Positions 18,588 through 43,034 of a stretch of DNA of 64,000 bases are shown in pieces (the first letter of the stretch is position 1; every line of letters starts with the position of its first letter). The stretch lies in NCBI GenBank assembly GCA_964462865.1, contig CAYWZO010000002.1, positions 820-64,819 of the forward strand, read 5' to 3'. The notes below the pieces were generated by a model. The model did not search any database. It was not told the origin of the DNA and saw only the letters and a program-made list of their open reading frames with translations. A program made the translations under genes and the position numbers. This DNA comes from an uncultured Dehalococcoidaceae bacterium (lineage in GTDB: Bacteria > Chloroflexota > Dehalococcoidia > Dehalococcoidales > RBG-16-60-22).

Positions 18588-21243
18588 GGGTACAAAGCTC
18601 CAATCGGGCGAAGGAGTAAAAGCTCATATCGCTGATGGTCAGCCGGTAGAAGCGGTGAGTCTCCGGCTCCGGCAGGAGGAATGATATCCAGTCTTCCGTT
18701 AATGCGGCCCGTTTCACCGCGAGAGTCGCCAGCGGCTTCCATGTCTCCCCGTCATCGCTGGACTCCAGGAGGGCTTTCGTCCCGTCCCACATATTTTTGG
18801 TTACACCGGAACGCGGCAGTATTCGCACCATGGCGACGGCACGCGCCTCACCAAGGTCCACGGATAGCCAGGCGGGGTTTTCTTGACGCGGGGTCTTCAG
18901 GTGCCAGAAGCCTTCAGTCCCGGGCTTGACCAGATTATCTTTCCCCTGGGTCGGGTGGTTGACCGAGCTGACCTCGATCTGCCCGGCCAGCAGCGGCAGG
19001 GCTACATAGCCACCGTCATCAAAACCCTGGACGCCCTTGACGACCGGGCCGACGGGCCCGGTCGTCAACCGCGGCAATGACGAATCAACCGTCTCCGAAG
19101 GCACTTCGGTCATGGCCAGCCTGCCCAGCGAAAAAAACGTCATATCGTGAACTTCCAGGCGGTAGTACCGGTAGGCGGCACTGCTGAACACCGGAAAAGT
19201 AATCCAGCCGTCGGCCAGGTAATCGCGGTCAATACCCAGCACGCCCAGGGGGCGCCAGGCGGCGCCGTCGTGGCTTGCCTGGAGCACCGCCCGGTTGCCG
19301 TCCCACATCTGCTCGGCATGGCCGGTACGCGGCCGGAGACGCAGCTCGGCGATGGCGGCCGCCCGGGGAAGTGATATGGTTATCCAGGCGGGGTTTTCCT
19401 CACGCGGGGTCTTCAGGTGCCAGAAGCCATCGGTGCCCCCCTGCACGAGAGCACCGGCCGGATTACGCGGGTCGATGGTGCTGGAGACTGCCAGCATCGA
19501 GGCATCCAGCTCAACGGAAGGGAACCGGCTTTCGCCGGTGCCCGCTTCTCCGAGTATCAATCGCGAAGTCCCCAGCGGGCCGGCGGAAATATCGACAATC
19601 AGGGGATACTGGTTTTCCGACCAGGCAATGATGGGATAATTGTCAGCCAGGTAACTCGCGAACTCCTGGAGGGTCTCCGCCGTGTCCGGCTGCACATGAT
19701 AGCTTCCGTAAAAGAAATAGCGTGGGTTGCTCACGCGCTGCCAGGCAGGGCTCTCACGGTTCACCGGGATAACGTAGGCCTGGGTGATATCCCGCTGTAT
19801 GAAAGCCTCGAAACTTATTTGCCCGATAGCGGGGGCGCGGGTAAAGTAGGCCACCTGGTGGGGCGTTATATTCGTCCAGAAGACCTCGCCCTGGAAATCG
19901 TTAAGTATCTTCATTTCAGGCGCGGCGAAATCGCGATTATAGGCACGTTCTTTGAACATATCGGGCCAGGTGCTGGCGACCGTCTGCCAGATGGTGACGG
20001 CGGCTACAACGGTGACCAGCAGCACCAGACTGCCGCGCACCGCCGGTATCCGTAACTTGCCTGCCGCGCTGAAAAATGAACGCAATGCGGCGATGCCTTC
20101 GCCGATGAAAAGGCCGCCGGTGACAGCCACCGGAACGGCGATGATGAAAGGCAAGGGATAGGCCGCCGCGGCCGCCGGCAGAACCAGGTAGAAGGACAGC
20201 GCGGCGAAGAAGAATGCGGCCAGCACACGTAAAGCTAGGTATCTGGACGTACCATGCCGGAAAACAGCCAGCGCGCCGAGCCCGACCAGCGGCAGCAGGA
20301 CGGCCACGATAAGCGGGGAAAACTGCGCCCAGATAGCCACAAACGGATTGCCGTTGTGGCCCACCGAGTGCACGCCCCAGAGTATCAGGTTGTTCTCCTG
20401 TGAGAAGGCGCGGAGAACCTCACGCGCCGGCTCGCCGAAGACACGGTTGCCGATAGAGGAAACAATGTCTTCCCAGGCGACGCCCGGACCGAGCACGGCG
20501 GCATTCTGGATAATGTGCACCAGCACCCCGCCGCAGGCGATACCGGCCAGCAACAATACGCGCCGGAGGGTGAAACCGGGAAGGCGGACTATCCAGAGAC
20601 CAACCAGCGTGACGATAAGGACGAGCATCTGGATATAATTCATCCACGATACGACCAGTACGCAAGCGGCAGCCAGCCACAGGAAACGGGGACGGTCACC
20701 GGAGCGGGAGAATGCCCACAACGCCAGGAAAAAGAGCCCCAGCCAGTAGGCATGCGTGGTGTGGTCCATCATAGGCAGGACATGGCGGGCATTGAGTGCC
20801 AGCAGGCCGACCGCGGCAATACCATGCCAGGGCGTAAACAGCCGCCAGAAGAAGGCCAGCATGGCCACCAGTCCGAGGATAAAAACGGCTATCATTATCA
20901 GGCGCACCTCGGGCAGGGTGTCCACTCCCGCCGAAATGAGACCCCCGATGATGATGATGGGCAGGGACGGCATGTGGGTGTAGTATACCGGCGGGGCGTC
21001 CGGGGAGAAGTCCAGGGAATGGTCGGTCAGCAGACCGCGCTCTAAGAAACCATGCACCACGAAATTGTACCCGCCCATGTAATCGAGGAAGGCCTCCTCC
21101 GGCGCAAAATCATCCACATGGGAAGAATCCCTGACCCAGAAAGTGAGGGCCATACCGGCAATGGCGGCAATGACGGCACCGGCCACGATAAAAGGCCAGA
21201 CCCTTTGCCGAAATCCCCTTGTTGTCCCCGCCGATGTCATCAT
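18580..21243 (-). CDS. Polytopic membrane protein (YYTH-motif family) with two C-terminal discoidin-like domains
   Basis: The N-terminal 430 aa are collinear with 15211-17409 (APEEAFLDYMGGYNF...DAPPVYYTHMPS). The C-terminus holds two copies of GFWHLKTPREENPAW...LR(L/I)(R/L)PR...S(H/D)DG..W.PL...YR(Y/F)YRL. Confidence 0.7.
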   Translation of the reverse strand: MMTSAGTTRGFRQRVWPFIVAGAVIAAIAGMALTFWVRDSSHVDDFAPEEAFLDYMGGYNFVVHGFLERGLLTDHSLDFSPDAPPVYYTHMPSLPIIIIGGLISAGVDTLPEVRLIMIAVFILGLVAMLAFFWRLFTPWHGIAAVGLLALNARHVLPMMDHTTHAYWLGLFFLALWAFSRSGDRPRFLWLAAACVLVVSWMNYIQMLVLIVTLVGLWIVRLPGFTLRRVLLLAGIACGGVLVHIIQNAAVLGPGVAWEDIVSSIGNRVFGEPAREVLRAFSQENNLILWGVHSVGHNGNPFVAIWAQFSPLIVAVLLPLVGLGALAVFRHGTSRYLALRVLAAFFFAALSFYLVLPAAAAAYPLPFIIAVPVAVTGGLFIGEGIAALRSFFSAAGKLRIPAVRGSLVLLVTVVAAVTIWQTVASTWPDMFKERAYNRDFAAPEMKILNDFQGEVFWTNITPHQVAYFTRAPAIGQISFEAFIQRDITQAYVIPVNRESPAWQRVSNPRYFFYGSYHVQPDTAETLQEFASYLADNYPIIAWSENQYPLIVDISAGPLGTSRLILGEAGTGESRFPSVELDASMLAVSSTIDPRNPAGALVQGGTDGFWHLKTPREENPAWITISLPRAAAIAELRLRPRTGHAEQMWDGNRAVLQASHDGAAWRPLGVLGIDRDYLADGWITFPVFSSAAYRYYRLEVHDMTFFSLGRLAMTEVPSETVDSSLPRLTTGPVGPVVKGVQGFDDGGYVALPLLAGQIEVSSVNHPTQGKDNLVKPGTEGFWHLKTPRQENPAWLSVDLGEARAVAMVRILPRSGVTKNMWDGTKALLESSDDGETWKPLATLAVKRAALTEDWISFLLPEPETHRFYRLTISDMSFYSFARLELCTHE

Positions 21244-23132
21244 CCTGAAGTCTCTCCGTGAAAAGTCGCCAGGTAATTCTTGAACTTTATGTCATCTACC
21301 CGGAAAAGATAGAAGCTCCGGGGTGCGAAAGATGCGGTATCCCCGTAAGGCACGGGGATGGTGCCGTAAAGTCCCGTCCAGTAATCGGCTTCGTAGAATG
21401 TAACCGCTGTTCCCCCGATGTTCTGCGCCCAGCGGCCGTAGTCCCTGCCGATGCCGCCATCATCTACCAGCACGTAAAGAGCCACGCGGCTGGCCGGATT
21501 ATCTGCTGACAGCCCGGCGCGAATATCCGCTAACTCTTTAATGGCCGTCACCGCCTGTCCTGTATCTCTGGTGTACTCTACCCTCCGTCCCGATTCGTAC
21601 TCGTAACCGGGGAAGGGGTAACGGGGGTGGCCGGTCTCCGCCACGCGGAAGTTCGTCAATACGATGTCCCCGTACTCGGTATTCTCGCCGATAAATCCGC
21701 CCAGCGCCTTGATTTCAGCGGGATAGACGCCGTCGTACATGTCCAGGCGCTGGTCATGCTCGGAAAAGCGGAAAGGCCGGCCGGAAAGCCGGTCCTGAAG
21801 AGTCGGAACGATGATGATAACAACCACCAGCAGCACCAGGACACGCACTGCCAGCTTCTCGGTATTCAGGCGGAAATAGTGATAGATATTGACAACGCAA
21901 TAGCCCAGCGCCAGCCCGAAGAAGGGCAGCACCGGCCGGTAGGCCGAACCGGCCTGGGTCACCGTGGACTGCAACATCAGCACCCAGAAGGAGCCACCCG
22001 CTATAAAGAAGACCAGCAGCAGCCACCACTGGGACCAGAGACCGCTGGCCGTAGCCTCCTGATTCTGCCGCCGCAACCGCCAGGCCAGCCAGCCGGACAC
22101 AGCCAGCAGGGCCAGCAGGATGCCTATTTCGAACCTCATGTTATTCCAGAGGTCGGCCTCGATCTTACGCAAGGCTTCCCAGATGGTGAAACCGCGGTAG
22201 TCTATTTCCTCGGCCAGCTGGAAGCCGGTGGTCCGTCGCATGAGCGCGGAGGTATAATCAATGAAGGCGTTCCTGACGCCGCCCAGGGCCGCCGCTACCT
22301 GGATAAAATGGCCTACCTGCCCCACTACCGGTGCCGCGATGATGAGGACAGCGGTACGCCACCTCTGCAGCACCTTACGCCCGTGGCGGGCCCAGAGGTA
22401 ACCGAGCCCAAAAACGCCTGCCCAGGGAATGAACTCCGGAGAATTTACAGATAGCAGGGCGAACATCAGCCAGGCGCCGGCATAGGGAATATAGCGTTTC
22501 CATCCGGTGGCGCCGGGGCGGCTCTCGGCCAGCACAAACAGAAAAGCGGCGCTGAAGGCGAAGAAAATATCGTACACATATACGGAAATATTATCGAAAA
22601 AGCGTAAAAATACCAGGCTGCTGCCCATAACCACGGTGCTGACCAGAGAGATGCCGCGGCCGAACAGCCGCAGCGCCGTGAGATACCAGAGTAACAACGA
22701 AAAGACCGAAAAAAAGGCCGCGATTTTATACAGCACCGGCAGTCCACCGACCCCAAGCTTTTCCCAGATTCCCACCACTATCGCGTCGAACGGTCCGTAG
22801 TGCGTGTAATAAATGCTGGCGTTGCGTACCTCCGGCAGCTCCGTCTGATAGGCATACCAGCCGCGGGAGAACTCCGGGTACCCGACGGTCATGTTGGAGA
22901 GGAAATAATGCCGGGCGAACCCTTCCTCCGCGAAGCGGTCCCCGGCCATGAGAATCAGGTAATCATTAAAGGGCGTAAAGCTTAAACGTTCGCCGCCTTC
23001 CGGTTGCGAATACGCCGGCCGGTCTATCTTGACCAAGCCCCAGATAAGCAAGCAGACCAGGAACAGCCCCAGAGCCAGGTGCTGCCAGTTATTCTTGAGC
23101 CAGGTACAGGTATTCTTTATCTTTGCGGGCAT
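21240..23132 (-). CDS. Polytopic membrane protein, divergent third member of the YYTH-motif family (no lectin domain)
   Basis: The first loop reads FNDYLILMAGDRFAEEGF...ASIYYTHYGPF, followed by about 11 further TM segments and a C-terminal soluble domain. ATGATGA overlap with the next gene. Confidence 0.6.
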   Translation of the reverse strand: MPAKIKNTCTWLKNNWQHLALGLFLVCLLIWGLVKIDRPAYSQPEGGERLSFTPFNDYLILMAGDRFAEEGFARHYFLSNMTVGYPEFSRGWYAYQTELPEVRNASIYYTHYGPFDAIVVGIWEKLGVGGLPVLYKIAAFFSVFSLLLWYLTALRLFGRGISLVSTVVMGSSLVFLRFFDNISVYVYDIFFAFSAAFLFVLAESRPGATGWKRYIPYAGAWLMFALLSVNSPEFIPWAGVFGLGYLWARHGRKVLQRWRTAVLIIAAPVVGQVGHFIQVAAALGGVRNAFIDYTSALMRRTTGFQLAEEIDYRGFTIWEALRKIEADLWNNMRFEIGILLALLAVSGWLAWRLRRQNQEATASGLWSQWWLLLVFFIAGGSFWVLMLQSTVTQAGSAYRPVLPFFGLALGYCVVNIYHYFRLNTEKLAVRVLVLLVVVIIIVPTLQDRLSGRPFRFSEHDQRLDMYDGVYPAEIKALGGFIGENTEYGDIVLTNFRVAETGHPRYPFPGYEYESGRRVEYTRDTGQAVTAIKELADIRAGLSADNPASRVALYVLVDDGGIGRDYGRWAQNIGGTAVTFYEADYWTGLYGTIPVPYGDTASFAPRSFYLFRVDDIKFKNYLATFHGETSG

Positions 23133-24408
23133 AGTTTTCTCTCACAGACACGGCCGGTTTCCGGGTTGCCAGGTAGGGCAGGCCGATGGTAAAAATAGTC
23201 AGATTGCCGAAAAAGATTACCCAGATGACCTGCGTCAGCGTCTCATGTTGGAGCACGATGGCCAGTACCTCGGCCAGAGTAATAAGGTCGACCAGGAACA
23301 TCATGCGCATTTGCCGGATGGCCAGGCAATAGTGCATCAGCACGATATTAAGGGAAAAGAACAGCATGGCCACGGCATAGAGGCTGACCATGGACAATGC
23401 TCCGGCGTACGAATCGCCGAACAGTATGATTAAAATATCCGGGAAGAGCCAGTAGACCAGCACGACGAGCCCGGACAGGAACAGTACCAGACCCAGGCAT
23501 TTAAATAGCAACGGCCGGGCGTCCTGTCCCAGGGTTGAGGCTTCGGTTGCCTTGGGAAGCAGGACGAAGGAGACAGCCATGGGCAGGAAATAGACCACTT
23601 TGCCCAGGGTGGCCATCGCCGTATACATCCCCGCCTCGGTACCGGGGAAATAATGCTTGACCAGCATGATATCGATATTGGAAGGGAGCGCCAGGAACAC
23701 GGCCAGCACCAGCGTCGGGAATAATACCGGACCAAGCTTCAAAGGCTGGCCCGCCGCCTTCCTGAATCCTGTATTCATGGAGCCCCGCCCGATGAACATG
23801 CCAACGATGATGGCCAGGCCGCTGGAGACCACCAGTACCCCGATAGCCCCGAGCAACCCCCAGCTGATATATACCAGCACCACCCCGAGCACCAGTTTCA
23901 GGACCTGGGGAGTGAGGTAGCCGGTGATACCTACATGCCGGAACCTGGCCAGTCCCTGCTGCATCCCCAGGAGGATATTGAGCAACAGTGAGGCTAGGAT
24001 GGAAAAGACCAGAAGGACCACCGGCACGACGCTGTCCAGGTGAAAGAAATGGGTGATGGGCACTGAAGCTGCCAGGCAGGCAATGGTAATAAGCAAGCAA
24101 ATAACGGCCAGCTTTATAGACAGCTTTAAAAAGCTGCCGATGGCAACTGTCTCATCGTGGCGTGCTTTTATCTCGGCGATGTTGGTAGCGATGGCCTGCA
24201 TCAGCGCCTGGCCGAAAAGGCCGGTGATGAGAAAAATGGCGTACAGGGCTCCGAGACTGCCGAAATCTTCCGGCCCCAGCAGCCTGCCCATCATAATCTG
24301 GTAAATATAAGAAAAGACGAAGCCGGCCGCCACGGCGAACAGCAAAAATCCGGCCTCGGAAGCGGCGGTTTTCCGCAGGAAAAGGAGATAGCGCTGCCCC
24401 CTGGTCAT
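23089..24408 (-). CDS. MOP-superfamily polysaccharide flippase (Wzx-like)
   Basis: About 12-14 TM segments with typical Wzx-like spacing (RLLGPEDFG..., LLPKATEA...). The start is uncertain: ATG 24408, ATG 24447 or TTG 24489. Confidence 0.7.
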   Translation of the reverse strand: MTRGQRYLLFLRKTAASEAGFLLFAVAAGFVFSYIYQIMMGRLLGPEDFGSLGALYAIFLITGLFGQALMQAIATNIAEIKARHDETVAIGSFLKLSIKLAVICLLITIACLAASVPITHFFHLDSVVPVVLLVFSILASLLLNILLGMQQGLARFRHVGITGYLTPQVLKLVLGVVLVYISWGLLGAIGVLVVSSGLAIIVGMFIGRGSMNTGFRKAAGQPLKLGPVLFPTLVLAVFLALPSNIDIMLVKHYFPGTEAGMYTAMATLGKVVYFLPMAVSFVLLPKATEASTLGQDARPLLFKCLGLVLFLSGLVVLVYWLFPDILIILFGDSYAGALSMVSLYAVAMLFFSLNIVLMHYCLAIRQMRMMFLVDLITLAEVLAIVLQHETLTQVIWVIFFGNLTIFTIGLPYLATRKPAVSVRENYARKDKEYLYLAQE

Positions 24409-24436
24409 GTTGTCATCTTCAGCGATATTTCTCTGG

Positions 24437-27400
24437 TCAGTTATCATAACATCTGGTCCACTGGTCGGACGGTTCGTCGCGGCGGTCAATACCGTTCGCC
24501 GAGAGTGTCATATCCGAGACAGCCAGGTCCGGATAGGTGAAGACCGGTTTCTTGATATACCGGAGCAGACCGTACTGGTTGCCCGCCAGCCGGCCCCCTT
24601 TAACGGTTACCAGGCTGGCATCCTTGACGGCGATACCGGTATGGCAGGAAGTCGCGCTGACGTTCTCCAGCGTAACGGCGCTCCCCTCGCCGATGGAAAC
24701 CCCCTTGTCCCCGGCGCCGGTCAACCTGGCTCCCCGCACGGCAACCAGGCTCCCCGAGAAATCCAGGGCATCGCCGCCGGGCCCGGTGATATCAATATCC
24801 GTGATATGGCCATAGCTCCAGTCAGAATCTACGGCATCGGAGCGGCTGTTGTTGACGACGAGCCTGCTAATCTCAAATATGGCGCCGCTAAGGTGCAGCC
24901 CGTCCTCGGATGAAAAATCCTGTAACGCGGTATCGGCCAGCACCACCGAAGTACCTATAAAACTTAGCCCGCCGGAAAACTGGACATCACCCATCGTCCC
25001 GGCGGCGGCCCGGCTCATCCTGACGTAGCGGAATTCGCTGGTACCGGGGGCATCGACCACAGCGACCCCGGCCCATGCCGTGTTTTCTTCTGCCGCTGCC
25101 AGTATAATGGGTGACGTAGCGCTCCCGATGGCGCGTATCGGGCTGTAGGAAAGTATGCCGGCATGCGGCGTGAACCGCAGGCTGTCGCCCGGCTCAAGCT
25201 CCAGCACGTAACCCCTGGGGATGGTGAGTACCCCGGATATCACCGCTTCCTTTTCTTTAAAACGGATTATCGGCGGCTGGCCACCGCCTGACGGGCTTAT
25301 CTCAAGTACTCCCTTTTCTACTAATTCTGCAACGGTAATCTCGGCCGCCAGCGGCTCCCACTCGCTTGCCCGAAATTTCACTTCGGCTACGGAAAAGAAC
25401 GATGGGTCATTAATGACAATACGGTAGTATCTATAGGCGGTGGTATTGGGAATAATATATTGTAACCAATCATATCCCGCGATGCCGAGTTTGGCTTTAT
25501 CAACCGCCAATCTGGCGATGCTGACCCAGCTAGACTCATCGTTCCGGTGATTACTGCCCTGGAGAACGGCATGGTCCTGGTCCCAGAATTGGCCGGTGGC
25601 CCTTTGCCGGGGGAGAATGGCCAGGCCGTTTATGGTAACCGGCTCGCTGAATTCGAACTTAATCCAGTGCCTGGGGGACTCCTGGGGATTTGCCACATGC
25701 CAGAAGTTAAACGGGTCCCCGTCAACCAGGCAATCACCAGCATGAGGCGACAGGAAATCGCTTACCGACAGAGATGCCGATGACGGCAGGCTTTGGTAGC
25801 TGTCGTGAGATTCAATCGGCAAATAGGTCTGGTTGAGATGATGAACTGCCACTTTCATCGCTGACAGGCTGGCAGCATCTGACTTTGCCAGTTCATTAGC
25901 ATCTAGCTGCAGCCAGCGGGTACCATTCTCCGCAAATTCCACCTCTACCAGAACGCAGTTTGGTACGGCATCGTCCGCCGGCCCGCCCAGCAAGGCCTTA
26001 AGAGCACCCGTCCAGACCATAGGTGAGTCAAGCTCCGACCGGCTCCCGCCGAGAGGTCCGGCGGCGCCAAGTTGTATTGTGGTGTATTGCGCCGGCACCG
26101 GCACCTCACCGAGCCTCCAGATGGCGCGAACCGAAGACGGTAAAACACTTTTATCTTCCGAGTTGAGCCACCGCAGGCTGGCAAGGTCAAGAGTAACCGT
26201 TTGCGACGAGAAATTGGACACCAGCAGGGTGAGATAGTACTTTCCCGCGCTTTCTTCCAGGCCCAGGGGTAGTATTACTACATCAGGCATGGCAGTATCC
26301 TGTGGCAATATCCCTGTCCGTGCCGCTGCCGTAGCCTGCGGCGCGAATCCGCTGACCACGATATGCCGTGTTGCCGGCAGCAGGTAGGCACCGCCCAGCG
26401 TTATGGCGGGGTTTGCCTCCAGCCAGCCGAGGAACTCGTCATACCGGCCGGCCGGTACCTGTACGTCGATAAAGGGCACCAGCGTGGTCGTCGCATCGGC
26501 ATTAGGGAAGCGTAGCCTCTCCAGGCCGAGGAAACGCCGGGCGGCCTCCCCGGTCAGGGTGAACGAATCTGCGTCCGGTTCGCTGATGTCAACGGAAACT
26601 ACCGCCGGGAAAAGGAGCGACGGCGAAAGATACCGGCCGCCGGGCAGTATGGTGTTCCCGTCAACCTGTACATATTCCGGCAGGGAAAGCCGCGCCGAAA
26701 ATGGGCTCAGATTATAGAGCGAAACGGTCCTGGCGTCCGGGCTGGTTGTCGCCCCCGGTGGGTCAGCGTCCACCAGCAGGTAGCTCCTCTCCAGGAGTGC
26801 CGGGATGGTCCTCGGCGTGATAAGCCGGTTATTAACGGCTATATCGACCTGCTCCGTGAGCCAGCTTAGCTCATCGGGCAGTTCCCGTACGGCGGCGCCA
26901 AACCCGGGCAGGGTGAAGCTTTCACCGGTGGTGAGAAAGGGCCTGACGGCAGCGAAGGCGGACTGCATCCTGGCAGCCAAGCGCCGCTGTATGGCCAGGT
27001 CGGCGGTATAGAGCAGATAGCGGTCGAACAGCTCGCGGTTCTCCGGTATTTTCAAAAACTGGTGCACTGCCGGGTGCGCGTTGGCAATCGGGACCGTCCA
27101 CGGCGTATATGCCAACAGGTCGGGCTCCTCGTCACGGGGAAAAAGGGCGGGGGTGGAGTACGGCGCGCCCTCAATGAGGCCCGTGCCCAGCCACCAGCTG
27201 GTGTGTACCAGCAGGCCAGGCCAGGTTTCCGTCTCGGCGTGAATATTAAGGTCGTGGCTCAACGGCTCCGGGGAACCCAGGTAAGGGTGGCGGTAAAACC
27301 ACAGGTTGCCCACGGTCAGGCCGTGCGTTGCCTGGAGCCGGCTGCTGAAGGCCAGGTTCTTGGCGAAATTGACATTATCGAGCGTGGCGGCGAAGGTGGC

Positions 27401-28561
27401 GGAGAATTCCTCTTCCCGGGTTATCGGTGCCTGTTCTTGCAGGCCGGTGGGTGGGGGCGGGTCAGCAAGTAAGTTAGTAGTCTTGGAGACCTGCCCGTCG
27501 TAGCGCTGCACCCCGGCAAAAAATCCGTCCGATTTGGGGTCCTCCACCAGCCGGTATATTCCCATCTCCCGGCCGTTTAGGGAGGCACGCACCAGGATAC
27601 AGCGCGGCTCGAGGAGCCCTTCGTCGTACATCAGCGACTCCGCCACGTAGTCGAGGAGGCCTTCCTGGGTGCGTATGCTGTGCAGCTTGAAACGGGACAT
27701 GCCGAAGAGCAGCGGGCCGGAAACTACCTTGCCGGTAAAGGAGGGCGTTTCTTCACTGAAATTAATCCAGATACCCACGCCGGACTCCCAGAGCTGTACG
27801 GTGGTGCGCCCGCTCTCGGTCACCACGTCCGCCAGTACCCGCTTGAAGCCGGTGGTCTCCACGGCGAGCTGGCCGCTCTTGAGTTGCTCCAGAAGGGCCG
27901 CCCGCTGGATGTCCCAGGAGAGATACGTCGCCTCGGACATCTGTATCGCCAGGGTGGGGATACCTGTGGTTACGGCGGGAATCTTTAACTCCGGTGGGTC
28001 GTGGGTTTCGGTAGCGCGGGCAGTCAGCGTGAACCCCGCGTCCAGCCTCCCCCCGCAGGACAGTACCAGCTTGTAGAGACCCCCGGGCACCTTAACCTCC
28101 AGGTTGCCAGCAACGTCCTTCCGGAACCCTACCGGGCGCTCCAGGCAATCGAACAGCGTGAGTACCAGCGGGGTAGCCACCGCGCCGGTGTCCCATCGCA
28201 GTTTAAGAGTGTAGTTGCCGCCCGCCTCTCCCACGTTCAGGCGAATCCCGCTTTTTGAGAGAACGCCGGCGGACACGGTCGCCACCGCAGGTATCAAAGG
28301 TTTCAGGTCAGCTATCTCGCCGGCCTTGACCTCAATATCCCACATATAATCAGGTAACGAGTAAGGGGCGCTGGTGACGCCGATGGTATTTCCGGAAGAC
28401 TGCAGCCTGGAGACCTCACCGGCAATGGCACCCCGGCCGATTTCCCGCAGACCGGGCATCAGCGTCAGCAGCAGGATGGCCGCTACCAGAACGGCCAGTC
28501 CGGCCAGTAGGGCCCCTGCCCCGGGGAGTTTTTTCACGGCGTTCAGACCAGCTTTTTTCAT
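24437..28561 (-). CDS. Giant membrane-anchored extracytoplasmic protein: CotH-kinase-like domain + discoidin-like domain + C-terminal right-handed beta-helix (PbH1) repeats
   Basis: N-terminal TM anchor. CotH-like block FKLHSIRTQEGLLDYVAESLMYDEGLLEPRCILVRASLNGREMGIYRLVEDP and NLWFYRHPY...SHDLN. Canonical discoidin start CLVDGDPFNFWHVANP...YRYYRIVIND. C-terminal repeats DALDFSGS...GDKGVSIGEGS...TGIAVKDAS. Confidence 0.65.
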   Translation of the reverse strand: MKKAGLNAVKKLPGAGALLAGLAVLVAAILLLTLMPGLREIGRGAIAGEVSRLQSSGNTIGVTSAPYSLPDYMWDIEVKAGEIADLKPLIPAVATVSAGVLSKSGIRLNVGEAGGNYTLKLRWDTGAVATPLVLTLFDCLERPVGFRKDVAGNLEVKVPGGLYKLVLSCGGRLDAGFTLTARATETHDPPELKIPAVTTGIPTLAIQMSEATYLSWDIQRAALLEQLKSGQLAVETTGFKRVLADVVTESGRTTVQLWESGVGIWINFSEETPSFTGKVVSGPLLFGMSRFKLHSIRTQEGLLDYVAESLMYDEGLLEPRCILVRASLNGREMGIYRLVEDPKSDGFFAGVQRYDGQVSKTTNLLADPPPPTGLQEQAPITREEEFSATFAATLDNVNFAKNLAFSSRLQATHGLTVGNLWFYRHPYLGSPEPLSHDLNIHAETETWPGLLVHTSWWLGTGLIEGAPYSTPALFPRDEEPDLLAYTPWTVPIANAHPAVHQFLKIPENRELFDRYLLYTADLAIQRRLAARMQSAFAAVRPFLTTGESFTLPGFGAAVRELPDELSWLTEQVDIAVNNRLITPRTIPALLERSYLLVDADPPGATTSPDARTVSLYNLSPFSARLSLPEYVQVDGNTILPGGRYLSPSLLFPAVVSVDISEPDADSFTLTGEAARRFLGLERLRFPNADATTTLVPFIDVQVPAGRYDEFLGWLEANPAITLGGAYLLPATRHIVVSGFAPQATAAARTGILPQDTAMPDVVILPLGLEESAGKYYLTLLVSNFSSQTVTLDLASLRWLNSEDKSVLPSSVRAIWRLGEVPVPAQYTTIQLGAAGPLGGSRSELDSPMVWTGALKALLGGPADDAVPNCVLVEVEFAENGTRWLQLDANELAKSDAASLSAMKVAVHHLNQTYLPIESHDSYQSLPSSASLSVSDFLSPHAGDCLVDGDPFNFWHVANPQESPRHWIKFEFSEPVTINGLAILPRQRATGQFWDQDHAVLQGSNHRNDESSWVSIARLAVDKAKLGIAGYDWLQYIIPNTTAYRYYRIVINDPSFFSVAEVKFRASEWEPLAAEITVAELVEKGVLEISPSGGGQPPIIRFKEKEAVISGVLTIPRGYVLELEPGDSLRFTPHAGILSYSPIRAIGSATSPIILAAAEENTAWAGVAVVDAPGTSEFRYVRMSRAAAGTMGDVQFSGGLSFIGTSVVLADTALQDFSSEDGLHLSGAIFEISRLVVNNSRSDAVDSDWSYGHITDIDITGPGGDALDFSGSLVAVRGARLTGAGDKGVSIGEGSAVTLENVSATSCHTGIAVKDASLVTVKGGRLAGNQYGLLRYIKKPVFTYPDLAVSDMTLSANGIDRRDEPSDQWTRCYDN

Positions 28562-28575
28562 CTCCGATTAACCAG

Positions 28576-29244
28576 TTACCCGATGTATATACTCACTTTC
28601 GCAGGGGCGGCCGCGTCGCTAAGTTCCCTGGTAAATACCCCAAATTCGATTCCCTTTTGCCGGCTGTACTGGTAGTTCAGGCTGGCGCTATCGGCCTGGG
28701 TGGAAACATTCTCCAGTTTCACCCCGCGCAGTTTGCTCTTGATAAAAGCCGTCAGCTTGGCTTCCATCTCGATATCACCCGGACTGCCGAAAGTGATAAT
28801 CAGGGTGCCGCGTCCGCCACCGGAATACCCCCTGGCCAGCTTGTGGCCGATGAGGGCGATTATAGCTATCGCGAAGAGAATACCTACCAGCAGGTAGTTA
28901 AAAATAGCGCTGCCGATGGAAGCGGCGATGAGCAGCATGACAAAGCCGATTTCGGCCGGGTCTTTCACCGGCGTGCGGAAGCGGATGATGGACAGCGCGC
29001 CGAGCAGACCGAGCGATAGCGGCAGCGAGAACTGTATGCCCAGGAACAGGGCGGTGATAGCCGGGCCCATCAGCAGAAAGGAGCGTTGCACCCCGGCCCC
29101 CACGTTTTGCCGTCCGTAGAAATAGTTATACATCAAAACAATCACGACCGAGCAGACCAGGGCGAAACCCAGCGCCACGATAACATCAGACAAAGCAAGG
29201 GGAGTATTGCGCTGGAACAGATCCAGCAAATCCTGCCATCTCAT
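28576..29244 (-). CDS. DUF4956-family membrane protein
   Basis: Four to five TM segments with GALSIIRFRTPVKDPAEIGFVMLLIAASIGSA, followed by a small C-terminal soluble domain. Confidence 0.75.
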   Translation of the reverse strand: MRWQDLLDLFQRNTPLALSDVIVALGFALVCSVVIVLMYNYFYGRQNVGAGVQRSFLLMGPAITALFLGIQFSLPLSLGLLGALSIIRFRTPVKDPAEIGFVMLLIAASIGSAIFNYLLVGILFAIAIIALIGHKLARGYSGGGRGTLIITFGSPGDIEMEAKLTAFIKSKLRGVKLENVSTQADSASLNYQYSRQKGIEFGVFTRELSDAAAPAKVSIYIG

Positions 29245-29289
29245 TTTTCCCGTTTCTCCTTTCCGGCAACCAGCCTGAACGTGTACTTT

Positions 29290-30060
29290 TTATTCCTGCC
29301 ACCAGTCCGCGGATTCCGGCGGTGCCAGGTGTGACTCCACACACCTGGCATACTTGGAAAAAGCGCTCCAGCGCGGGCCGGCCTGCTTCAGAGCGTACAG
29401 GTTCCGGGGCAGCACGGTGGTGCCCCCCTTTAGCTCCAGCACGGTGGCGTGTAACGTCATTCCGGAGACACGGCAGGGAAAACGAGGCCCTACCGGCCGC
29501 GAGGAGATATCCGTGTCATAGGTCACCGAAAGCCCGGTAGTCGGCTCGCGGAACCTCTGGCGGCGGTAGGAAATGATGACCACCGGGCCAAGCTGTCCTG
29601 GCGGCAGCCAGCCCATTTCCGGGAGCACCCGTTCCAGGGCAAGCTTCCGGATTAGCGCGGTCAGGTTGGCCGGCAGCAGTTCCGCGCCTTCCAGCGGCAC
29701 CGCCCGCCGGCGCTTGTCCGTGCCAAAGCCCGCTTTGGATTTTATTTCAATATAAGCCGTTAATTTTTGACCGGCGACGGGCACCTGATACCAGCGCAGC
29801 CTTACTTTATTCTTGTAAACATCTCCGTTCAGACATTCATGATAAGAGTCCAGGGCAGGGGTATCGAAATATATACTGAAGACCGGGTTCGCGGGAAAGA
29901 CCGGGTCGACGATGCAGGCATGGTGGAGCCATCTCTTAACGAACGCAACGAAACGAGGCTGGATAACCAGTTTCTGTTCGAAACGCCGTATCCTGGTATC
30001 AGTTAACGTCATATCTGCTTTCCGTACCGCCTTTAAAAAATACTGCTTGTTCCGGGGCAC
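29290..30060 (-). CDS. VTC-domain (CYTH-like polyphosphate polymerase domain) protein
   Basis: RRFEQKLVI, SIYFDTPALDSYHECL, KVRLRWY, AYIEIKSK, DKRR, LELK and FSKY, in the order of bacterial VTC-domain proteins. Alternative start at ATG 30012. Confidence 0.8.
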   Translation of the reverse strand: MPRNKQYFLKAVRKADMTLTDTRIRRFEQKLVIQPRFVAFVKRWLHHACIVDPVFPANPVFSIYFDTPALDSYHECLNGDVYKNKVRLRWYQVPVAGQKLTAYIEIKSKAGFGTDKRRRAVPLEGAELLPANLTALIRKLALERVLPEMGWLPPGQLGPVVIISYRRQRFREPTTGLSVTYDTDISSRPVGPRFPCRVSGMTLHATVLELKGGTTVLPRNLYALKQAGPRWSAFSKYARCVESHLAPPESADWWQE

Positions 30061-31297: not shown

Positions 31298-32794
31298 TCA
31301 GGAACCTGCTTTCTCTGCTTTGACATGTCCGATGATGTTGGCAGGCTCGCTTATTTTCCTGAAAGATTCCAGATGCCAGCTCTTCTGGGCGATTTTCCAG
31401 AAACCCCTGAAACCCAGTTTCATGGGGTATATCCGGGACTTATTTAAATACGCTTTGACCAGATAGTAGAGAATAAAGTAGAAGCGGTTAAACGGCAGGG
31501 GCAGCAACCACCGGTAGATAAATTTCCGGGTAAAAGGCAACCATACCATCAGCGGCCCCAGGGCGGAAAGATTCCGCTGGACGTTCTTTTCACTTTCGGA
31601 GAAACAGGTAAGCGGCGACTCATTCATATAAGACATGTGCAGCTCGGAATAAGTCGGCCGGTAAATTCCCTCCTTGATGCAATAATCCCCCAGTTTGGTG
31701 CAGGGATAGGGATGGAAAATCGGGAACTCCGAATAGGAAGCCCCGGCCCGGATGTTCAACTCGATAGTCTCAATCTCGTTCTGCAGCGTGGCGCGAGGCA
31801 GGCCCAGGATGCTGTTGGAAAAGGTATGGATACCGCGCCGCCGGCAAATATCGAAAGCCCGGATGATATCGTTTTCCTGCATATTACGCTGCAGGACTTC
31901 GTTGCGGAACCGCTCGTTGCCGGCCTCAATAGACATGCTGATGGAGTGACAACCGGCCGCCTTGAGCATTCTGGCCATGTCCTCGGTCATCAGGTCAGCG
32001 CGGGTAAGGCAGTGAAACGGCAGACCAATGCGCCGCTTGAACTTGACGGCGAAATCTTCCAGCCAGTCGTCCGACCGGTAGGTGAAGACATCGTCGTAGA
32101 ACTTGACCACCTGAAGTGGATACTTCTCTTTAACGCGTGCCACTTCCTCGACGATATAGTCCACGGAATGGCGACGGACGATGCGTCCTTTATTATGATA
32201 CATCTGGCGGAAAACGTGATTGAAACAATAAGTGCAGTAATAGGGACACCCGCGTGAGGCCATGAAGCTCTTCAGGGGCCAGCCCCGCATTTCCGTCGTA
32301 GTATAAAAGAGCTCACGGTCCGGGAAAGGGAGACTATCCAGGTCCTCTTTCAGGGGCCGCAGGTCGGTATTACCCCCCTGTCTGGTAACGATGTTAGGGA
32401 TATTGGTTATATCGTGTCCGTTTTCCAGGGCGGCCAGTAACTCGGTAAAGGCTTCGTCCCCTTCGCCGATGCAGATGGCATCCAGGGTACTGATACGCAG
32501 AGTCTCGGGGAAAAAGGTAACATGCGGCCCGCCCATCACCGTGAATACCCCGGGATGTGCGGCTTTGAGCCTTTCATTAAACTCGATGTAATACTTGTGT
32601 TCCCCAGTAGAGCCGCTGTAGGCGATTACGTCCGGGGCATCCCTCTGTATAATCGCCATGACGTTTTCCCGGCTCAAGATGCCCAGGCCGATGGTATGCC
32701 CGGCCTGTCGGGCCAGTGCCGAAATCTGCATCAGCCCCACGGAATCTATATAGTCAATATCCCAGACGATAAACAATATTTTCATTTCACTCAA
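31298..32794 (-). CDS. B12-binding radical SAM enzyme (class B, methyltransferase-like)
   Basis: N-terminal cobalamin-binding-like domain (KILFIVWDIDY...GEGDEAF) followed by the cluster motif SRGCPYYCTYC. Confidence 0.8.
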   Translation of the reverse strand: MSEMKILFIVWDIDYIDSVGLMQISALARQAGHTIGLGILSRENVMAIIQRDAPDVIAYSGSTGEHKYYIEFNERLKAAHPGVFTVMGGPHVTFFPETLRISTLDAICIGEGDEAFTELLAALENGHDITNIPNIVTRQGGNTDLRPLKEDLDSLPFPDRELFYTTTEMRGWPLKSFMASRGCPYYCTYCFNHVFRQMYHNKGRIVRRHSVDYIVEEVARVKEKYPLQVVKFYDDVFTYRSDDWLEDFAVKFKRRIGLPFHCLTRADLMTEDMARMLKAAGCHSISMSIEAGNERFRNEVLQRNMQENDIIRAFDICRRRGIHTFSNSILGLPRATLQNEIETIELNIRAGASYSEFPIFHPYPCTKLGDYCIKEGIYRPTYSELHMSYMNESPLTCFSESEKNVQRNLSALGPLMVWLPFTRKFIYRWLLPLPFNRFYFILYYLVKAYLNKSRIYPMKLGFRGFWKIAQKSWHLESFRKISEPANIIGHVKAEKAGS

Positions 32795-32825
32795 ACATAT
32801 CCCCTATCAGCGTAAGAGTCAGTTC

Positions 32826-33983
32826 TTATCCTTTATAAAATTTGATAATTGTGTCTATCACGTAATCTAACTGGGACTCGGTCAGGTGCTGGTGCACCGG
32901 AAGCGTCAGTATCGATTTAGCCTGGGTTTCGGTGACGGGGAAATCGCCTTCCTTGTAGCCCAGGAACTGGGCAGCCTCCTGAAGGTGCAGCGGTACGGGA
33001 TAATGGACCTTGGCCTCGATGCCGTTATCCAGCAGGCATTTATACAGATCGTTCCTCTTTTTTACCTGAATGACATAGGTATGAAAGACCTGCCTGATAT
33101 TAGGTTCCCTGACCGGAATATGGATGTGGTCCTCCATTCCGGCCAGCCCGGTATCATAGATACGGGCGTGTTTAATACGGGTGGCGGTAATATCTCCCAG
33201 GTCCTGCATCAGGCGCAGGGCTACAATCGCCTGAAGAGTATCGAGGCGGCTGTTATAAGCAAACGTGACACATTCATCGCGGTTGATAATACCGTGGTTC
33301 CGTAGCAGTGTTAACTTATCCCGGTATTCCTCCGAATTGGTGGTCACCATGCCGCCGTCACCCCAGACGTTAAGGTTCTTGAGCGGGTGCATGCTGAATC
33401 CGGCGATGTCTCCGAAAGAACCGGTCGGTCGCTCGTCGATCGCGGCGCTGATGGCCTGAGCGGCGTCCTCGATGACGTAGAGTCCATATCTCCGGGCGAT
33501 TTCCAGAATGCGCGGCATGTCCGCGGGTTTACCCGTCAGGTGCACCGGCATAATCGCTCTGGTTCTCGACGTAATGGCAGCCTCGATGAACTCGGGGTCG
33601 ATGTTGTAATCGTCTTTAACATCTACATAAACCGGGGTCGCCCCCGCCGCCACGATGGCGCCTGTGGTGGCCAGAAAGCTATTGGGCGGGGTAATAACCT
33701 CATCTCCAGCGCCGATACCCAGCACTTTCAAGGCCAGGAACAACGCGTCCGTCCCCGAGTTAACCCCCACGGCACACCTCACCTGGCAGAGCGTGGCAAA
33801 CTTTGCTTCAAATTCCGCCACCTGCGGGCCGAGAGTATACTGCCCGGTCTTGAGCAATAATTCTCTGACATCGTTCAACATATCCTCGGCATGCGCCTGC
33901 TTGGGGAGGTCGATGTATTTAACTTTCACGTCCTTGCTATCCAGATTGAATTGCTGCAGCAGATAAGAATAGGCGACCTTCAT
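32826..33983 (-). CDS. DegT/DnrJ/EryC1-family PLP sugar aminotransferase
   Basis: GTDALFLALKVLGIGAGDEVITPPNSF, DAAQA, and FSMHPLKNLN (PLP Lys). Confidence 0.85.
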   Translation of the reverse strand: MKVAYSYLLQQFNLDSKDVKVKYIDLPKQAHAEDMLNDVRELLLKTGQYTLGPQVAEFEAKFATLCQVRCAVGVNSGTDALFLALKVLGIGAGDEVITPPNSFLATTGAIVAAGATPVYVDVKDDYNIDPEFIEAAITSRTRAIMPVHLTGKPADMPRILEIARRYGLYVIEDAAQAISAAIDERPTGSFGDIAGFSMHPLKNLNVWGDGGMVTTNSEEYRDKLTLLRNHGIINRDECVTFAYNSRLDTLQAIVALRLMQDLGDITATRIKHARIYDTGLAGMEDHIHIPVREPNIRQVFHTYVIQVKKRNDLYKCLLDNGIEAKVHYPVPLHLQEAAQFLGYKEGDFPVTETQAKSILTLPVHQHLTESQLDYVIDTIIKFYKG

Positions 33984-34012
33984 CTTCTCACTCCTTTTTT
34001 AATTTCCGGTTT

Positions 34013-35425
34013 TTACCAGCGGAAAATACCGGGGAAAAACGTTTTCAGGCCGTAGTATCCCTCCATGAAGAATGTGCCCCGGCGCAGGGCAATCACCGTC
34101 CTCCGTAAAAGATACCTGGGATTCAGGTAGAAACGGGAGTAAAATTTATCATAATATTTCTGCATGATTTCATGGCTTAAGTTCGGGTGGGTATAGACTT
34201 CACCCCCGCCGTGGATTTTGTACTGCGTCCAGTCCCGGCTTTTAATAAGTCCTTTTTTCTCGTATTCCCAGAAAAGCCGGGCATCCGGTAAAGGCATGGT
34301 TACCGTTACCTTGGCAAAGTCCGGCATTAACCTCACGGCGAAGTCAATGGTCCGCTTCATGCTCTCTTCGGTCTCGGCGGGCAGCCCCAGCATGAAATAG
34401 CCGACCGTTTCCAATCCGACTTTCTTGGCCATTGCCAGGGCCCGCTCACCCTGCTCCAGGGTTATACCCTTGCTGATGGAATCCAGGCAGGTCTGGTCAC
34501 CGCTCTCGAAGCCGAAAGCCACAGTATAAAGCCCGGCGCGCTTGGCAATCTGGAAAAATTCCATGTCCACCCGGTCGACGCGCAGGCCGGCGGCCAGGTT
34601 CCAGGGGAACTTCAATCCCTCCCGGATAATCATCTCGCAGATGGTCTTGGCGCGGTTGATATCGGTGGTGAACATATCGTCCAGGAAACGCAACTCACGG
34701 TAACCCAGGGACAGCGTATGCTTGATTTCCTCGATGACCCGCTCCGGCGATTTGGTGATGAAACGCCGCCCGAATACTGTCTTACCGCAAAAGCTGCAGT
34801 CAAAGACACACCCCCGGCTGGTCATGATATCGCTCATGGGGGACTCGCGGGAGACCAGGCGGGAACACTTATAGCGGCGGATATCGAAAAGGTCCAGGGC
34901 CGGGAAGGGAAGCGCGTCCAGGTCCTCGATACGGCCCCGCGGCGCGGTGTGCTGTGTGTGGCCGTTCTCCCGGTAGTAGATGCCCTTGACATCAGCCAGT
35001 TTCTTGCCCCCGGCAATGTCCACGATGGTCCTGTCCCCCTCACCCACGGCCGCGATATCGTAAGTCGATTCGTTCAGAGTATCCTCCGGCAGAGCCGAGG
35101 CGTGAGGCCCGCCGATGACCGTCGTCACTTCCTTGCCGAGTTTCTCCTTGGCCCTGCGGCTGATTTCCAGAGCCTCAAAATACAGGGGTGTCGTGGCGGA
35201 AACGCCGACAATCCTGGGCCTCTGCTGCAACGCTTCATCCAGAGCTTTCGTGGGGTCTGGCTCGATGCCCAGGTCCAGCAATGAGACACTGATTTTCGCC
35301 TCGCGCAGCGTGGCCGCCAGACAGGCGATGGAAAGAATAGGATATCTCTGCACATAGGCAGTGACCTTGGTACCTTCGTACGCGTTAAAAGCTGAAGGTG
35401 GATTGATTAATAATACGTCACTCAT
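34013..35425 (-). CDS. B12-binding radical SAM enzyme (class B), second copy
   Basis: VLLINPP...VGVSATTP...GGPHASALP...GEGDRT, then TSRGCVFDCSFCGK. Confidence 0.8.
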   Translation of the reverse strand: MSDVLLINPPSAFNAYEGTKVTAYVQRYPILSIACLAATLREAKISVSLLDLGIEPDPTKALDEALQQRPRIVGVSATTPLYFEALEISRRAKEKLGKEVTTVIGGPHASALPEDTLNESTYDIAAVGEGDRTIVDIAGGKKLADVKGIYYRENGHTQHTAPRGRIEDLDALPFPALDLFDIRRYKCSRLVSRESPMSDIMTSRGCVFDCSFCGKTVFGRRFITKSPERVIEEIKHTLSLGYRELRFLDDMFTTDINRAKTICEMIIREGLKFPWNLAAGLRVDRVDMEFFQIAKRAGLYTVAFGFESGDQTCLDSISKGITLEQGERALAMAKKVGLETVGYFMLGLPAETEESMKRTIDFAVRLMPDFAKVTVTMPLPDARLFWEYEKKGLIKSRDWTQYKIHGGGEVYTHPNLSHEIMQKYYDKFYSRFYLNPRYLLRRTVIALRRGTFFMEGYYGLKTFFPGIFRW

Positions 35426-35472
35426 GTCTGTCCTCCCCGATTATGTTATGTAAAATACATCCCTGATTTTGC

Positions 35473-37593: not shown

Positions 37594-37597
37594 AGCT

Positions 37598-38353
37598 CTA
37601 AATTCTCGTTACCCTGTTGCCCTCCCGCCCGGAAAACTGAAGGCGCAGGTAATAACGCGTGATGGTCTGGAAGGCGTTGACAATATTCCGGACGTTATTG
37701 ATTCTCGAATTGCCGTAGTCCCGCTGCTTGAGGAGGATACCCACCTCTTTCCAGGCAACCTTACGTTTCATCAGGGTAATGATGAGCGGGGCCGTAAAGA
37801 CAAACCCGCGGGAATGCACCTCCGGCACGGTGCGGATTTGCTCCGCGGGGAACACCCCGGGGCCGTTATAATAGCGCAGCCGCTTGAAAAACAGGGCATT
37901 AATCAGGCAGGTGTATCCCCAGGAAATTACCCGCCGGAGCCACGGGCGGATGTTGGAATTGACCATATAAGGGAGAATCATATCGGCGGTGCCGATAGCG
38001 TCAGCGATGGTCTCCAGAGAAACCTGCGGGATTTCTCCGTCACCGGGGATGAGCCACACGTATCTAAAGCGGGCTTTTGCCACGCCGCGCCGGAAGGCGT
38101 AACCGCAGCCCATGTTCTTCTCGTTGTGAACCACCACGACGCGTGAATCGGCGGCGGCAATATCATCGGCGATATGGCCGGTCCCGTCACGGCTGCCGTC
38201 ATCCACGATGATGATTTCGTAATCAGCAAACCGGGGAGCCATGGCGCGGCGCACGGCATCGACCGCCTTCGGTAAATTTCCGGCCTCGTTAAAGGCCAGC
38301 ACTACTGCCGATACCGTCACCGCATCCCCGGTTATTTCACTAGAAGGGGCCAT
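37598..38353 (-). CDS. GT2 glycosyltransferase, polyprenol-phosphate-sugar synthase type (Dpm1/ArnC/GtrB-like)
   Basis: VSAVVLAFNEAGNL...YEIIIVDDGSRDGT...VHNEKNMGCGYAFRRG...PGDGE. The short soluble size is typical of this class. The stop lies 4 nt before the GT-C-like gene. Confidence 0.8.
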   Translation of the reverse strand: MAPSSEITGDAVTVSAVVLAFNEAGNLPKAVDAVRRAMAPRFADYEIIIVDDGSRDGTGHIADDIAAADSRVVVVHNEKNMGCGYAFRRGVAKARFRYVWLIPGDGEIPQVSLETIADAIGTADMILPYMVNSNIRPWLRRVISWGYTCLINALFFKRLRYYNGPGVFPAEQIRTVPEVHSRGFVFTAPLIITLMKRKVAWKEVGILLKQRDYGNSRINNVRNIVNAFQTITRYYLRLQFSGREGNRVTRI

Positions 38354-39377: not shown

Positions 39378-39387
39378 GTTCTCCTCA

Positions 39388-40377: not shown

Positions 40378-40478
40378 GCGAATCGAGCCCCTTTATATAG
40401 CAGTAGGCCGGTTACCGTAGATTGTTCCGGTTCAGCATCACGGTTTCCGGCCCCTCGTTCCACGGTTAACGGTATCGT

Positions 40479-41471: not shown

Positions 41472-41483
41472 TATCGTCTCACT

Positions 41484-43019: not shown

Positions 43020-43034
43020 ATTCGGCCCCCCCTG

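Follow-up and report, generated by a model that had tools for sequence, protein, structure and literature searches.

The stretch analysed here (the window) comprises 64,000 nucleotides (nt) from an uncultured Dehalococcoidaceae bacterium (Chloroflexota; assembly GCA_964462865.1, contig CAYWZO010000002.1, positions 820-64,819 of the forward strand), and carries within a glycan operon three genes for a VTC-domain protein, a DUF4956 membrane protein and a large protein with a CotH-like kinase fold. An earlier inspection of the letters alone, the sequence-only reading, had put this trio at 24437-30060; the open reading frames (ORFs) lie exactly where it placed them and domain searches agree with its assignments. 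The ORF listing gives three contiguous, co-oriented ORFs on the minus strand, of 256, 222 and 1374 amino acids (aa), separated by gaps of 45 nt and 14 nt, with 9 nt to the next upstream gene. As spacing is tight and a consensus scan of the region found no excess of promoter- or terminator-like sites over shuffled sequence, the arrangement fits a single transcription unit. NCBIfam offers no name for any of the three proteins. The genes and the features within them are as follows, the residue assignments being those of a hidden Markov model (HMM) alignment to the Bacillus cereus CotH crystal sequence 5JD9:

29290..30060, minus strand: VTC-domain protein (Vtc4-like triphosphate-tunnel domain), 256 aa, GTG start; Pfam VTC
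28576..29244, minus strand: DUF4956 multi-pass membrane protein, the constant partner of VTC, 222 aa; Pfam DUF4956
24437..28561, minus strand: membrane-anchored multidomain protein of 1374 aa; ORF listing
28457..28519, minus strand: N-terminal transmembrane anchor of the large protein, ~aa 15-35; hydropathy peak 2.79 at aa 17-35
26822..27973, minus strand: CotH-like atypical kinase fold, aa 197-580; AlphaFold2 with Foldseek, jackhmmer and family profile
27323..27325, minus strand: codon of His413, where CotH has its catalytic Asp (B. subtilis D228)
27305-27307, minus strand: codon of Asn419, equivalent to B. subtilis N233
27251..27253, minus strand: codon of Asp437, which corresponds to the metal-binding Asp of CotH (B. 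subtilis D251)
25388..25747, minus strand: discoidin (F5/8 type C) domain, carbohydrate-binding, aa 939-1058; Pfam 32.5 bits, cutoff 28.2
24566..24874, minus strand: right-handed beta-helix repeats, Pfam core aa 1230-1332; Beta_helix 21.1 bits, cutoff 25.9

The large protein is ordered, from its N-terminus, as an anchor, a beta-rich region, the CotH-like kinase fold, an unassigned middle, the discoidin domain and the beta-helix. It has one hydrophobic segment only, and as four lysines precede this helix (N-terminus MKKAGLNAVKK...TLMPGLREIGR), the positive-inside rule predicts an N-in/C-out topology that would leave CotH, discoidin and beta-helix outside the membrane. The hydropathy scan thus agrees with the earlier division into a soluble VTC protein, a membrane DUF4956 protein and an anchored 1374-aa protein. 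Among 13 homologues of the large protein, 11 are full-length (1364-1387 aa; 46-83% identical over the queried N-terminal 933 aa) and two are shorter. The discoidin domain is matched in all 12 family members, its profile matching the N-terminal domain of galactose oxidase in the PDB, and Beta_helix, below threshold in the window protein, is nevertheless matched in 11 of 12 family members (best expectation (E) value 2e-12), so that both modules ascribed to the CotH protein are upheld. The beta-helix domain probably extends over ~aa 1100-1374; P0120 and P0150 are examples of distant CotH-like relatives that share a C-terminal module of this kind. One homologue carries at NCBI only the name 'right-handed parallel beta-helix repeat-containing protein [Chloroflexota bacterium]'; the CotH-like domain is missed by public annotation. 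Two close relatives of the locus, L001 and L002, carry at 14294-19378 a second CotH-like paralogue directly after the first, a protein of 1694 aa with Laminin_G_3, discoidin and beta-helix that scores 462 bits against the family profile, where the window has one copy.

The Pfam CotH profile (PF08757, cutoff 23.8 bits) scores 15.8 bits in the window protein, at E 0.01 and over no more than aa 285-360, and the match is weak in all 12 family members (best E 6e-4). When the large protein or its family was compared with the PDB, by sequence or by profile, discoidin-domain matches alone came back and no CotH structure was reached, and the single distant CotH-like protein P0194 gave no match as a PDB query. 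Despite the sub-cutoff score the CotH homology is real, as confirmed by three lines of sequence and model evidence that agree. First, a family profile (aa 185-780, 12 homologues) searched against 1.8 billion representative proteins retrieves 507 proteins, and sampled distant matches pass Pfam CotH with 26-60 bits (P0120 60.3, P0139 51.8, P0194 34.6). Second, jackhmmer started from the window region and iterated through the retrieved proteins reaches 5JD9 with 99.9 bits. Third, an AlphaFold2 model of aa 197-580 based on a diverse 25-sequence alignment (A5) has a predicted local distance difference test score (pLDDT) of 86.4 and a predicted template-modelling score (pTM) of 0.88, and a Foldseek search of the PDB with this model finds B. 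cereus CotH 5JD9/5JDA at E 3.3e-12 and template-modelling scores of 0.61-0.66; these are the only matches with E < 0.001, followed by another atypical kinase at E 0.012. The usable prediction is owed to the broad alignment. A first model (aa 185-780, 12 close homologues) was unusable at pLDDT 48.5 and was not used for structure search, and a third homologue search with the broad-alignment query returned one protein, leaving the alignment no deeper. Profile retrieval, jackhmmer and structure match together indicate that aa 197-580 form a divergent CotH-fold enzyme.

Of the description of CotH proteins as atypical protein kinases, the fold stands in this protein, whereas the canonical catalytic Asp does not. 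In the HMM alignment, for which the actual 5JD9 sequence was used, the window segment is QATHGLTVGNLWFYRHPYLGSPEPLSHDLN; His413, with Gly414 beside it, occupies the D228 position, and the equivalents of the metal-binding D251 and of N233, which lies five residues past the catalytic position, are retained. The B. subtilis CotH sequence behind this numbering, which we take to be correct, has Asp at 228 and 251 and matches 5JD9 with E 1e-142. Of 155 subfamily sequences, 98% have His at the D228 position, as do all members of alignments A1 and A5, and 94% retain D437; at N419 the family has either Asn or Asp, and E340, N329 and several Gly and Tyr positions are common to the subfamily and CotH. 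As one residue has taken the place of the Asp almost universally, we regard it as a replacement and not as drift or decay; with His at the catalytic position, however, a conventional CotH protein kinase role cannot be assumed. In B. subtilis, either of the changes D228Q and D251A leaves CotH inactive (PMC7821199). We also considered His413 as a special adaptation to polyphosphate (polyP) and ruled it out: canonical Asp-type CotH proteins likewise stand beside VTC-DUF4956 (their motifs are seen in loci L004 and L005), so that His is no prerequisite for partnership with VTC.

The VTC domain (PF09359) scores 80.8 bits against a cutoff of 23 and covers aa 26-243 and profile positions 2-233 of 235. 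As homologues are ~246 aa, the true start is probably Met17 (30010-30012). The hydropathy scan finds zero hydrophobic segments in this protein, which is thus predicted to be soluble; it is a single-domain protein of 256 aa that lacks the SPX domain and the transmembrane domain of eukaryotic Vtc4. A 25-sequence family profile finds in the PDB the catalytic domain of yeast Vtc4 (3G3Q) at E 3.9e-11 and the inactive paralogue Vtc2 at E 5.6e-4. We take the Vtc4 tunnel residues of Hothorn et al. 2009 to be K200, R264, R266, K281, Y359, R361, R373, E426, S457 and K458. The invariant residues of the window family are E28, K30, K83, K85, R87, R89, E105, K107, K116, R118, Y165, R167, R169, E209, K211, S235 and K236, and in the alignment of the profile to 3G3Q R87/R89 correspond to R264/R266, K107 to K281, K116/R118 to K294/R296, Y165/R167 to Y359/R361, E209 to E426 and S235/K236 to S457/K458; K30 corresponds to K200 by the Pfam register only. 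On this alignment the window VTC keeps most of the tunnel residues of active Vtc4, as the proposal of a polyP synthase demands, the Arg373 position excepted.

DUF4956 (PF16316) is matched with 43.2 bits against a cutoff of 30.6, and all 15 neighbour homologues match too. Hydrophobic segments at aa 21-39, 56-84 and 114-132 in the hydropathy scan point to the architecture of its family, which is ~four hydrophobic helices followed by a soluble C-terminal domain of ~85 aa. The invariant motif (S73, L76, G79, L80, G82, L84, S85, R88, F89, R90, K94) forms a Gly-rich helix and then an R-F-R-x-x-x-K loop. A search for solved relatives found none, and the Vtc membrane domains are not detectably similar. 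For the streptococcal homologue PMC12345266 gives a prediction of four transmembrane helices and an intracellular ACT domain. A true relationship to MgtC is unsupported, as only three of the 15 members give a match, at E values of at least 0.11 that are not significant.

The sequence-only reading had the trio recur in other bacterial genomes, which holds, and the three genes are co-conserved in relatives. In three close relatives (L001-L003, 46-57% identity) the order radical SAM (S-adenosylmethionine) enzyme, discoidin protein, VTC, DUF4956, large protein is kept. A genome scan seeded with a 10-sequence VTC alignment yielded 11 loci, which belong to Dehalococcoidia, Anaerolineaceae, Planctomycetota, Verrucomicrobia and Kiritimatiellia, and DUF4956 directly follows VTC in 10/10 of those reaching far enough, as it does in L001-L003. 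CotH, at 69-193 bits in Pfam, is adjacent in six of the nine informative loci (L004, L005, L011-L014), and in L009 a Cthe_2159 carbohydrate-binding beta-helix protein follows DUF4956 in place of CotH. Seeding from the CotH side, we find that the distant His-type relatives P0120, P0079, P0150 and P0194 all adjoin DUF4956 (4/4) and that three of their loci also have VTC, while the contig of the fourth is short. VTC and DUF4956 are therefore the constant core and CotH is a frequent but not obligatory partner, which qualifies the trio as a unit of three genes; chance adjacency is ruled out by the recurring VTC-DUF4956-CotH neighbourhoods.

Every CotH partner examined has an N-terminal signal, anchor or lipobox, and the neighbourhoods are glycan loci with genes for NDP (nucleoside diphosphate)-sugar epimerases, YfhO, MBOAT/AlgX, GT1, FdtA, SIS and PfkB. 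The glycan-targeting modules that come with the trio are fused discoidin and beta-helix in the window, LamG in Verrucomicrobia and a separate beta-helix gene between CotH and VTC in L020, the last indicating that the association of CotH with a beta-helix is conserved whether fused or split. In the streptococcal trio the accompanying glycan module is a glycoside hydrolase (PMC12345266). The trio was found in Chloroflexota, Planctomycetota, Verrucomicrobiota and Kiritimatiellia.

Several of these loci have further genes beside the core. In L007 (2428-7560) and L008 (8054-13618) a DUF4129 gene lies upstream of VTC-DUF4956 and genes for a MoxR AAA ATPase and VWA proteins lie downstream, which suggests that the core is used with other partners. 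In the Planctomycetota loci L010 (7956-9839) and L011 (7957-9855) a gene for a PhoX-like alkaline phosphatase, a further extracytoplasmic phosphate enzyme, is immediately upstream of VTC-DUF4956(-CotH). The loci L015-L017, which encode the 863-aa CotH/beta-helix protein P0120, have at 566-973 a conserved 135-aa ORF with no Pfam match between VTC and DUF4956, and in L019, a 4.5-kb contig without VTC, a Sulfatase-family (PF00884) gene (79-1935) directly precedes DUF4956 and the CotH-like gene.

The recurrence, and the want of a known function, are documented. Whitfield et al. 2020 (PMC7112168) describe cotH, a polyphosphate polymerase and DUF4956, together with DUF4832, as an accessory set contiguous with Gram-positive pelDEADAFG operons; the trio is also visible in C. 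perfringens NELoc-2 (PMC2879425), and in S. intermedius the set is SIR_1591-1594 (PMC12345266, of 2025). There, deletion of the DUF4956 or the CotH gene lowers aggregation in artificial sputum medium by >50% and changes Pel levels, and the authors state the mechanism as unknown and the trio as not found outside Pel loci, a claim that the non-Pel loci found here contradict. The window shares with the pel-associated set the same three contiguous, co-oriented families, a secreted or anchored CotH, a DUF4956 protein of ~four helices with a C-terminal soluble domain, a fourth glycan-active component and the setting of an exopolysaccharide locus. It differs in that Pfam scans of the surrounding operon ORFs matched no Pel-specific family (630- and 706-aa ORFs matched nothing) and the trio is not contiguous with a pelDEADAFG operon; it stands instead with a Wzx-type flippase, a GT2 enzyme, two B12-radical SAM enzymes, a thiamine pyrophosphate (TPP) E1 pair, an aminotransferase and an HldE-like protein. 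Its CotH is of the divergent His-type and fused to discoidin and beta-helix instead of FN3, a DUF4832 glycoside hydrolase is missing and the host belongs to the Chloroflexota. As the trio has already been described beside pel operons, the window holds a variant in a non-Pel locus and not a categorically new system; what is new is the non-Pel context, the Chloroflexota host and the His-type CotH fused to discoidin and beta-helix.

Two better-studied systems bear on its components. With the yeast VTC complex, in which the Vtc4 tunnel domain sits on the Vtc1/2/3/4 channel (3G3Q, 7YTJ, 8I6V), the window shares a tunnel domain with conserved basic residues, an obligatory pairing with a membrane protein and, as we propose, the logic of coupling synthesis to translocation, whereas its VTC protein has neither SPX nor a membrane segment, its partner DUF4956 is unlike the Vtc membrane domains and the predicted direction is out of the cell and not into the vacuole. 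With the Bacillus spore-coat Ser/Thr kinase CotH (5JD9/5JDA, PF08757) it shares the atypical kinase fold, the N233 and D251 equivalents and other core positions; it differs in its ~14% identity, its sub-threshold Pfam score and the change of D228 to His, and whereas Bacillus CotH is made in the mother-cell cytoplasm, the window domain lies inside a 1374-aa glycan-binding protein that is membrane-anchored and predicted to be extracytoplasmic, and its substrate is probably no spore-coat protein. An analogy, by description only, may be drawn to the xylose kinase Fam20B and to POMK, secretory-pathway kinase-fold enzymes that act on glycans at the far side of a membrane with ATP (adenosine triphosphate) imported into the Golgi or endoplasmic reticulum. 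CotH is reported as distantly related to Fam20C (PMC7821199).

Based on our data and in line with the inference of the sequence-only reading, we propose, as a tentative explanation to which we give somewhat less than an even chance, that the trio may be one envelope-modifying module in which polyP would be made, exported and used by a kinase on the outside to modify glycan or envelope proteins. The cytoplasmic VTC protein would polymerise polyP from ATP, and a DUF4956 oligomer would carry the chain across the membrane, in parallel to yeast Vtc4 on the VTC membrane channel. The discoidin and beta-helix domains would position the anchored CotH-like enzyme on the glycan, where exported polyP would be the donor in place of ATP and phosphate or short chains would be placed onto the operon glycan or envelope proteins. 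PolyP synthesis, export through DUF4956, the donor and the acceptor are all steps that we infer. We are led to an envelope module since the adjacency of VTC and DUF4956 is constant, the CotH partner is always exported and a glycan module always accompanies it; as the partner is exported, ATP should be unavailable there. The greater closeness of VTC to active Vtc4 than to inactive Vtc2 counts for polyP synthesis, and the conserved His/Asn/Asp active-site constellation in the CotH fold, the repeated placement in glycan loci and the effects of the S. intermedius deletions on Pel and aggregation count for the proposal as a whole. Bacterial polyP synthesis is attributed to PPK1 and PPK2; we know of no characterised bacterial enzyme of the VTC type and of no exporter of polyP in bacteria, and our literature search found no paper characterising a bacterial VTC protein or DUF4956.

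Several observations weigh against this proposal. We know of no experiment that shows polyP synthesis by a bacterial VTC-domain protein or polyP conduction by DUF4956, and of no kinase-fold enzyme with polyP as its donor. DUF4956 and the membrane domain of yeast VTC have no sequence relationship; the position of Vtc4 R373 is Ser/Thr and unconserved in the VTC family, R169 being an additional invariant Arg on the same strand; the catalytic Asp, whose change in D228Q inactivates B. subtilis CotH, is His here; no CotH lies in the available flanks of L007 and L008 (Dehalococcoidales); and PMC12345266, in its abstract and results, singles out the DUF4956 and CotH deletions in S. intermedius, and not the VTC deletion, for the changes in aggregation and Pel. 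A more specific form of the proposal, which we hold to be rather doubtful, is that the His-type CotH-like enzymes would be the first kinase-fold phosphotransferases to act on glycans outside a bacterial membrane with polyP in place of ATP, the donor coming from a hitherto unrecognised bacterial polyP synthase/exporter of VTC and DUF4956; the invariant His might form a phospho-His intermediate or serve as catalytic base.

The presence of the VTC-DUF4956 core without CotH in L007, L008 and L009, the last with only the Cthe_2159 carbohydrate-binding beta-helix protein after DUF4956, would also be expected if polyP itself were the product, an anionic polymer exported to the envelope or matrix, and the CotH-like protein did not phosphorylate but bound, anchored or trimmed glycan or polyP, for instance as a tether that holds polyP on the glycan layer. 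The missing catalytic Asp and the beta-helix and discoidin domains, both binding or processing folds, speak for such a role as well. We consider it unlikely, however, as H413, N419, D437 and E340 are strongly conserved over 155 diverse sequences, which argues for catalysis over a decayed site, and as CotH proteins that keep the Asp also partner VTC-DUF4956 (L004, L005), those of L004, L005 and L011-L014 passing Pfam CotH.

The same active site bears on whether the CotH-like domain could be a pseudokinase, that is, a structural or substrate-binding scaffold from which phosphotransfer has been lost, with the activities residing in the beta-helix and VTC. His at a position where D228Q abolishes the activity of B. 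subtilis CotH (PMC7821199) and the sub-threshold Pfam CotH score are what such a scaffold might show, and yet the replacement is a single residue, His in 98%, and not drift, and the metal-binding Asp and the Asn equivalent are retained. A His has moreover been proposed as the catalytic base in the DRH motif of phosphoinositide 3-kinase, and we judge loss of phosphotransfer to be quite unlikely.

Triphosphate-tunnel enzymes have several different activities, which leaves room for an intracellular regulator in which VTC makes or hydrolyses cytoplasmic phosphate compounds, an MgtC-like, ACT-bearing DUF4956 senses or regulates phosphate and energy status, and CotH is an ATP-dependent Ser/Thr kinase regulating glycan synthesis. 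The regulatory idea was put forward for Pel (PMC7112168), the MgtC/ACT reading of streptococcal DUF4956 is published too (PMC12345266) and three DUF4956 members have faint MgtC matches; but that similarity is not significant (E at least 0.11), and since all examined CotH partners have export signals or anchors and come fused to carbohydrate-binding domains of extracellular type, a cytoplasmic kinase that uses ATP is improbable, and the regulator the most so of the explanations considered.

The envelope-module proposal touches on the unsolved question of the phosphoryl donor of bacterial secreted and surface kinases, to which the trio gives a directly testable answer. If it is true, His-type enzymes using polyP would explain the donor of secreted kinases and a new route of polyP export would be defined; should the mechanism prove wrong, what remains is an uncharacterised module that is widespread and determines envelope or biofilm glycans. 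In our sample the trio occurs in glycan loci of at least five phyla, in addition to the published Gram-positive cases (streptococci, clostridia, bifidobacteria). Its occurrence outside Pel loci and the large size of the His-type subfamily suggest particular mutants and assays and make more model organisms eligible.

The trio lies in a glycan operon that runs on the minus strand from ~44048 down to ~13427, between a flippase and a lectin lipoprotein as the sequence-only reading had it. Its nearest neighbours are:

31298..32794, minus strand: B12-binding radical SAM enzyme, upstream; Pfam Radical_SAM and B12-binding, in the same order in L001-L003
30070..31281, minus strand: discoidin protein with two F5_F8_type_C domains, a probable lipoprotein, upstream; Pfam 69 bits, signal sequence with a lipobox-like GTSC
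23089..24489, minus strand: Wzx-type flippase (Polysacc_synt), downstream, context only; Pfam 33.4 bits, ~12 hydrophobic segments

The discoidin protein precedes VTC in L001-L003 too. The flippase is not kept in all relatives, being near the trio in L001 and L002 after the second CotH-like paralogue and absent in L003. With its listed TTG start the flippase ORF shares 53 nt (24437-24489) with the 3' end of the CotH-like gene; as the first ATGs lie 14 and 27 codons in, translation probably begins further downstream, with less overlap or none.

By Pfam the operon contains an NDP-sugar dehydratase, an epimerase, an HldE-like kinase/nucleotidyltransferase, a TPP E1 alpha/beta pair, a GT2 enzyme, two B12-radical SAM enzymes, a DegT aminotransferase, the Wzx-type flippase, large multi-pass proteins and discoidin lipoproteins. 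Its upstream half (31298-44048, minus strand) encodes the radical SAM pair, DegT, the TPP E1 pair, GT2, the fusion of an HldE-like cytidylyltransferase with PfkB and two NDP-sugar dehydratase/epimerases. From this combination the predicted product is an amino sugar or heptose of an unusual kind, branched or C-methylated, and the same gene set occurs in L001 and L002. Several discoidin proteins are encoded on the minus strand at 13427-23132 and 35473-37593; the 380- and 413-aa proteins have lipoboxes, and the 732- and 887-aa proteins have a multi-pass N-terminal half and a C-terminal discoidin domain. The two multi-pass proteins without a Pfam match (630 and 706 aa) could be glycosyltransferases or polymerases that have gone unrecognised. 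Outside the operon, on the plus strand, a 1019-aa fusion of NuoF-like flavin mononucleotide (FMN)/Fe-S domains with a pyridine-nucleotide-disulphide oxidoreductase (5523-8582) and an aldehyde:ferredoxin oxidoreductase (44440-46350) are consistent with an anaerobic host.

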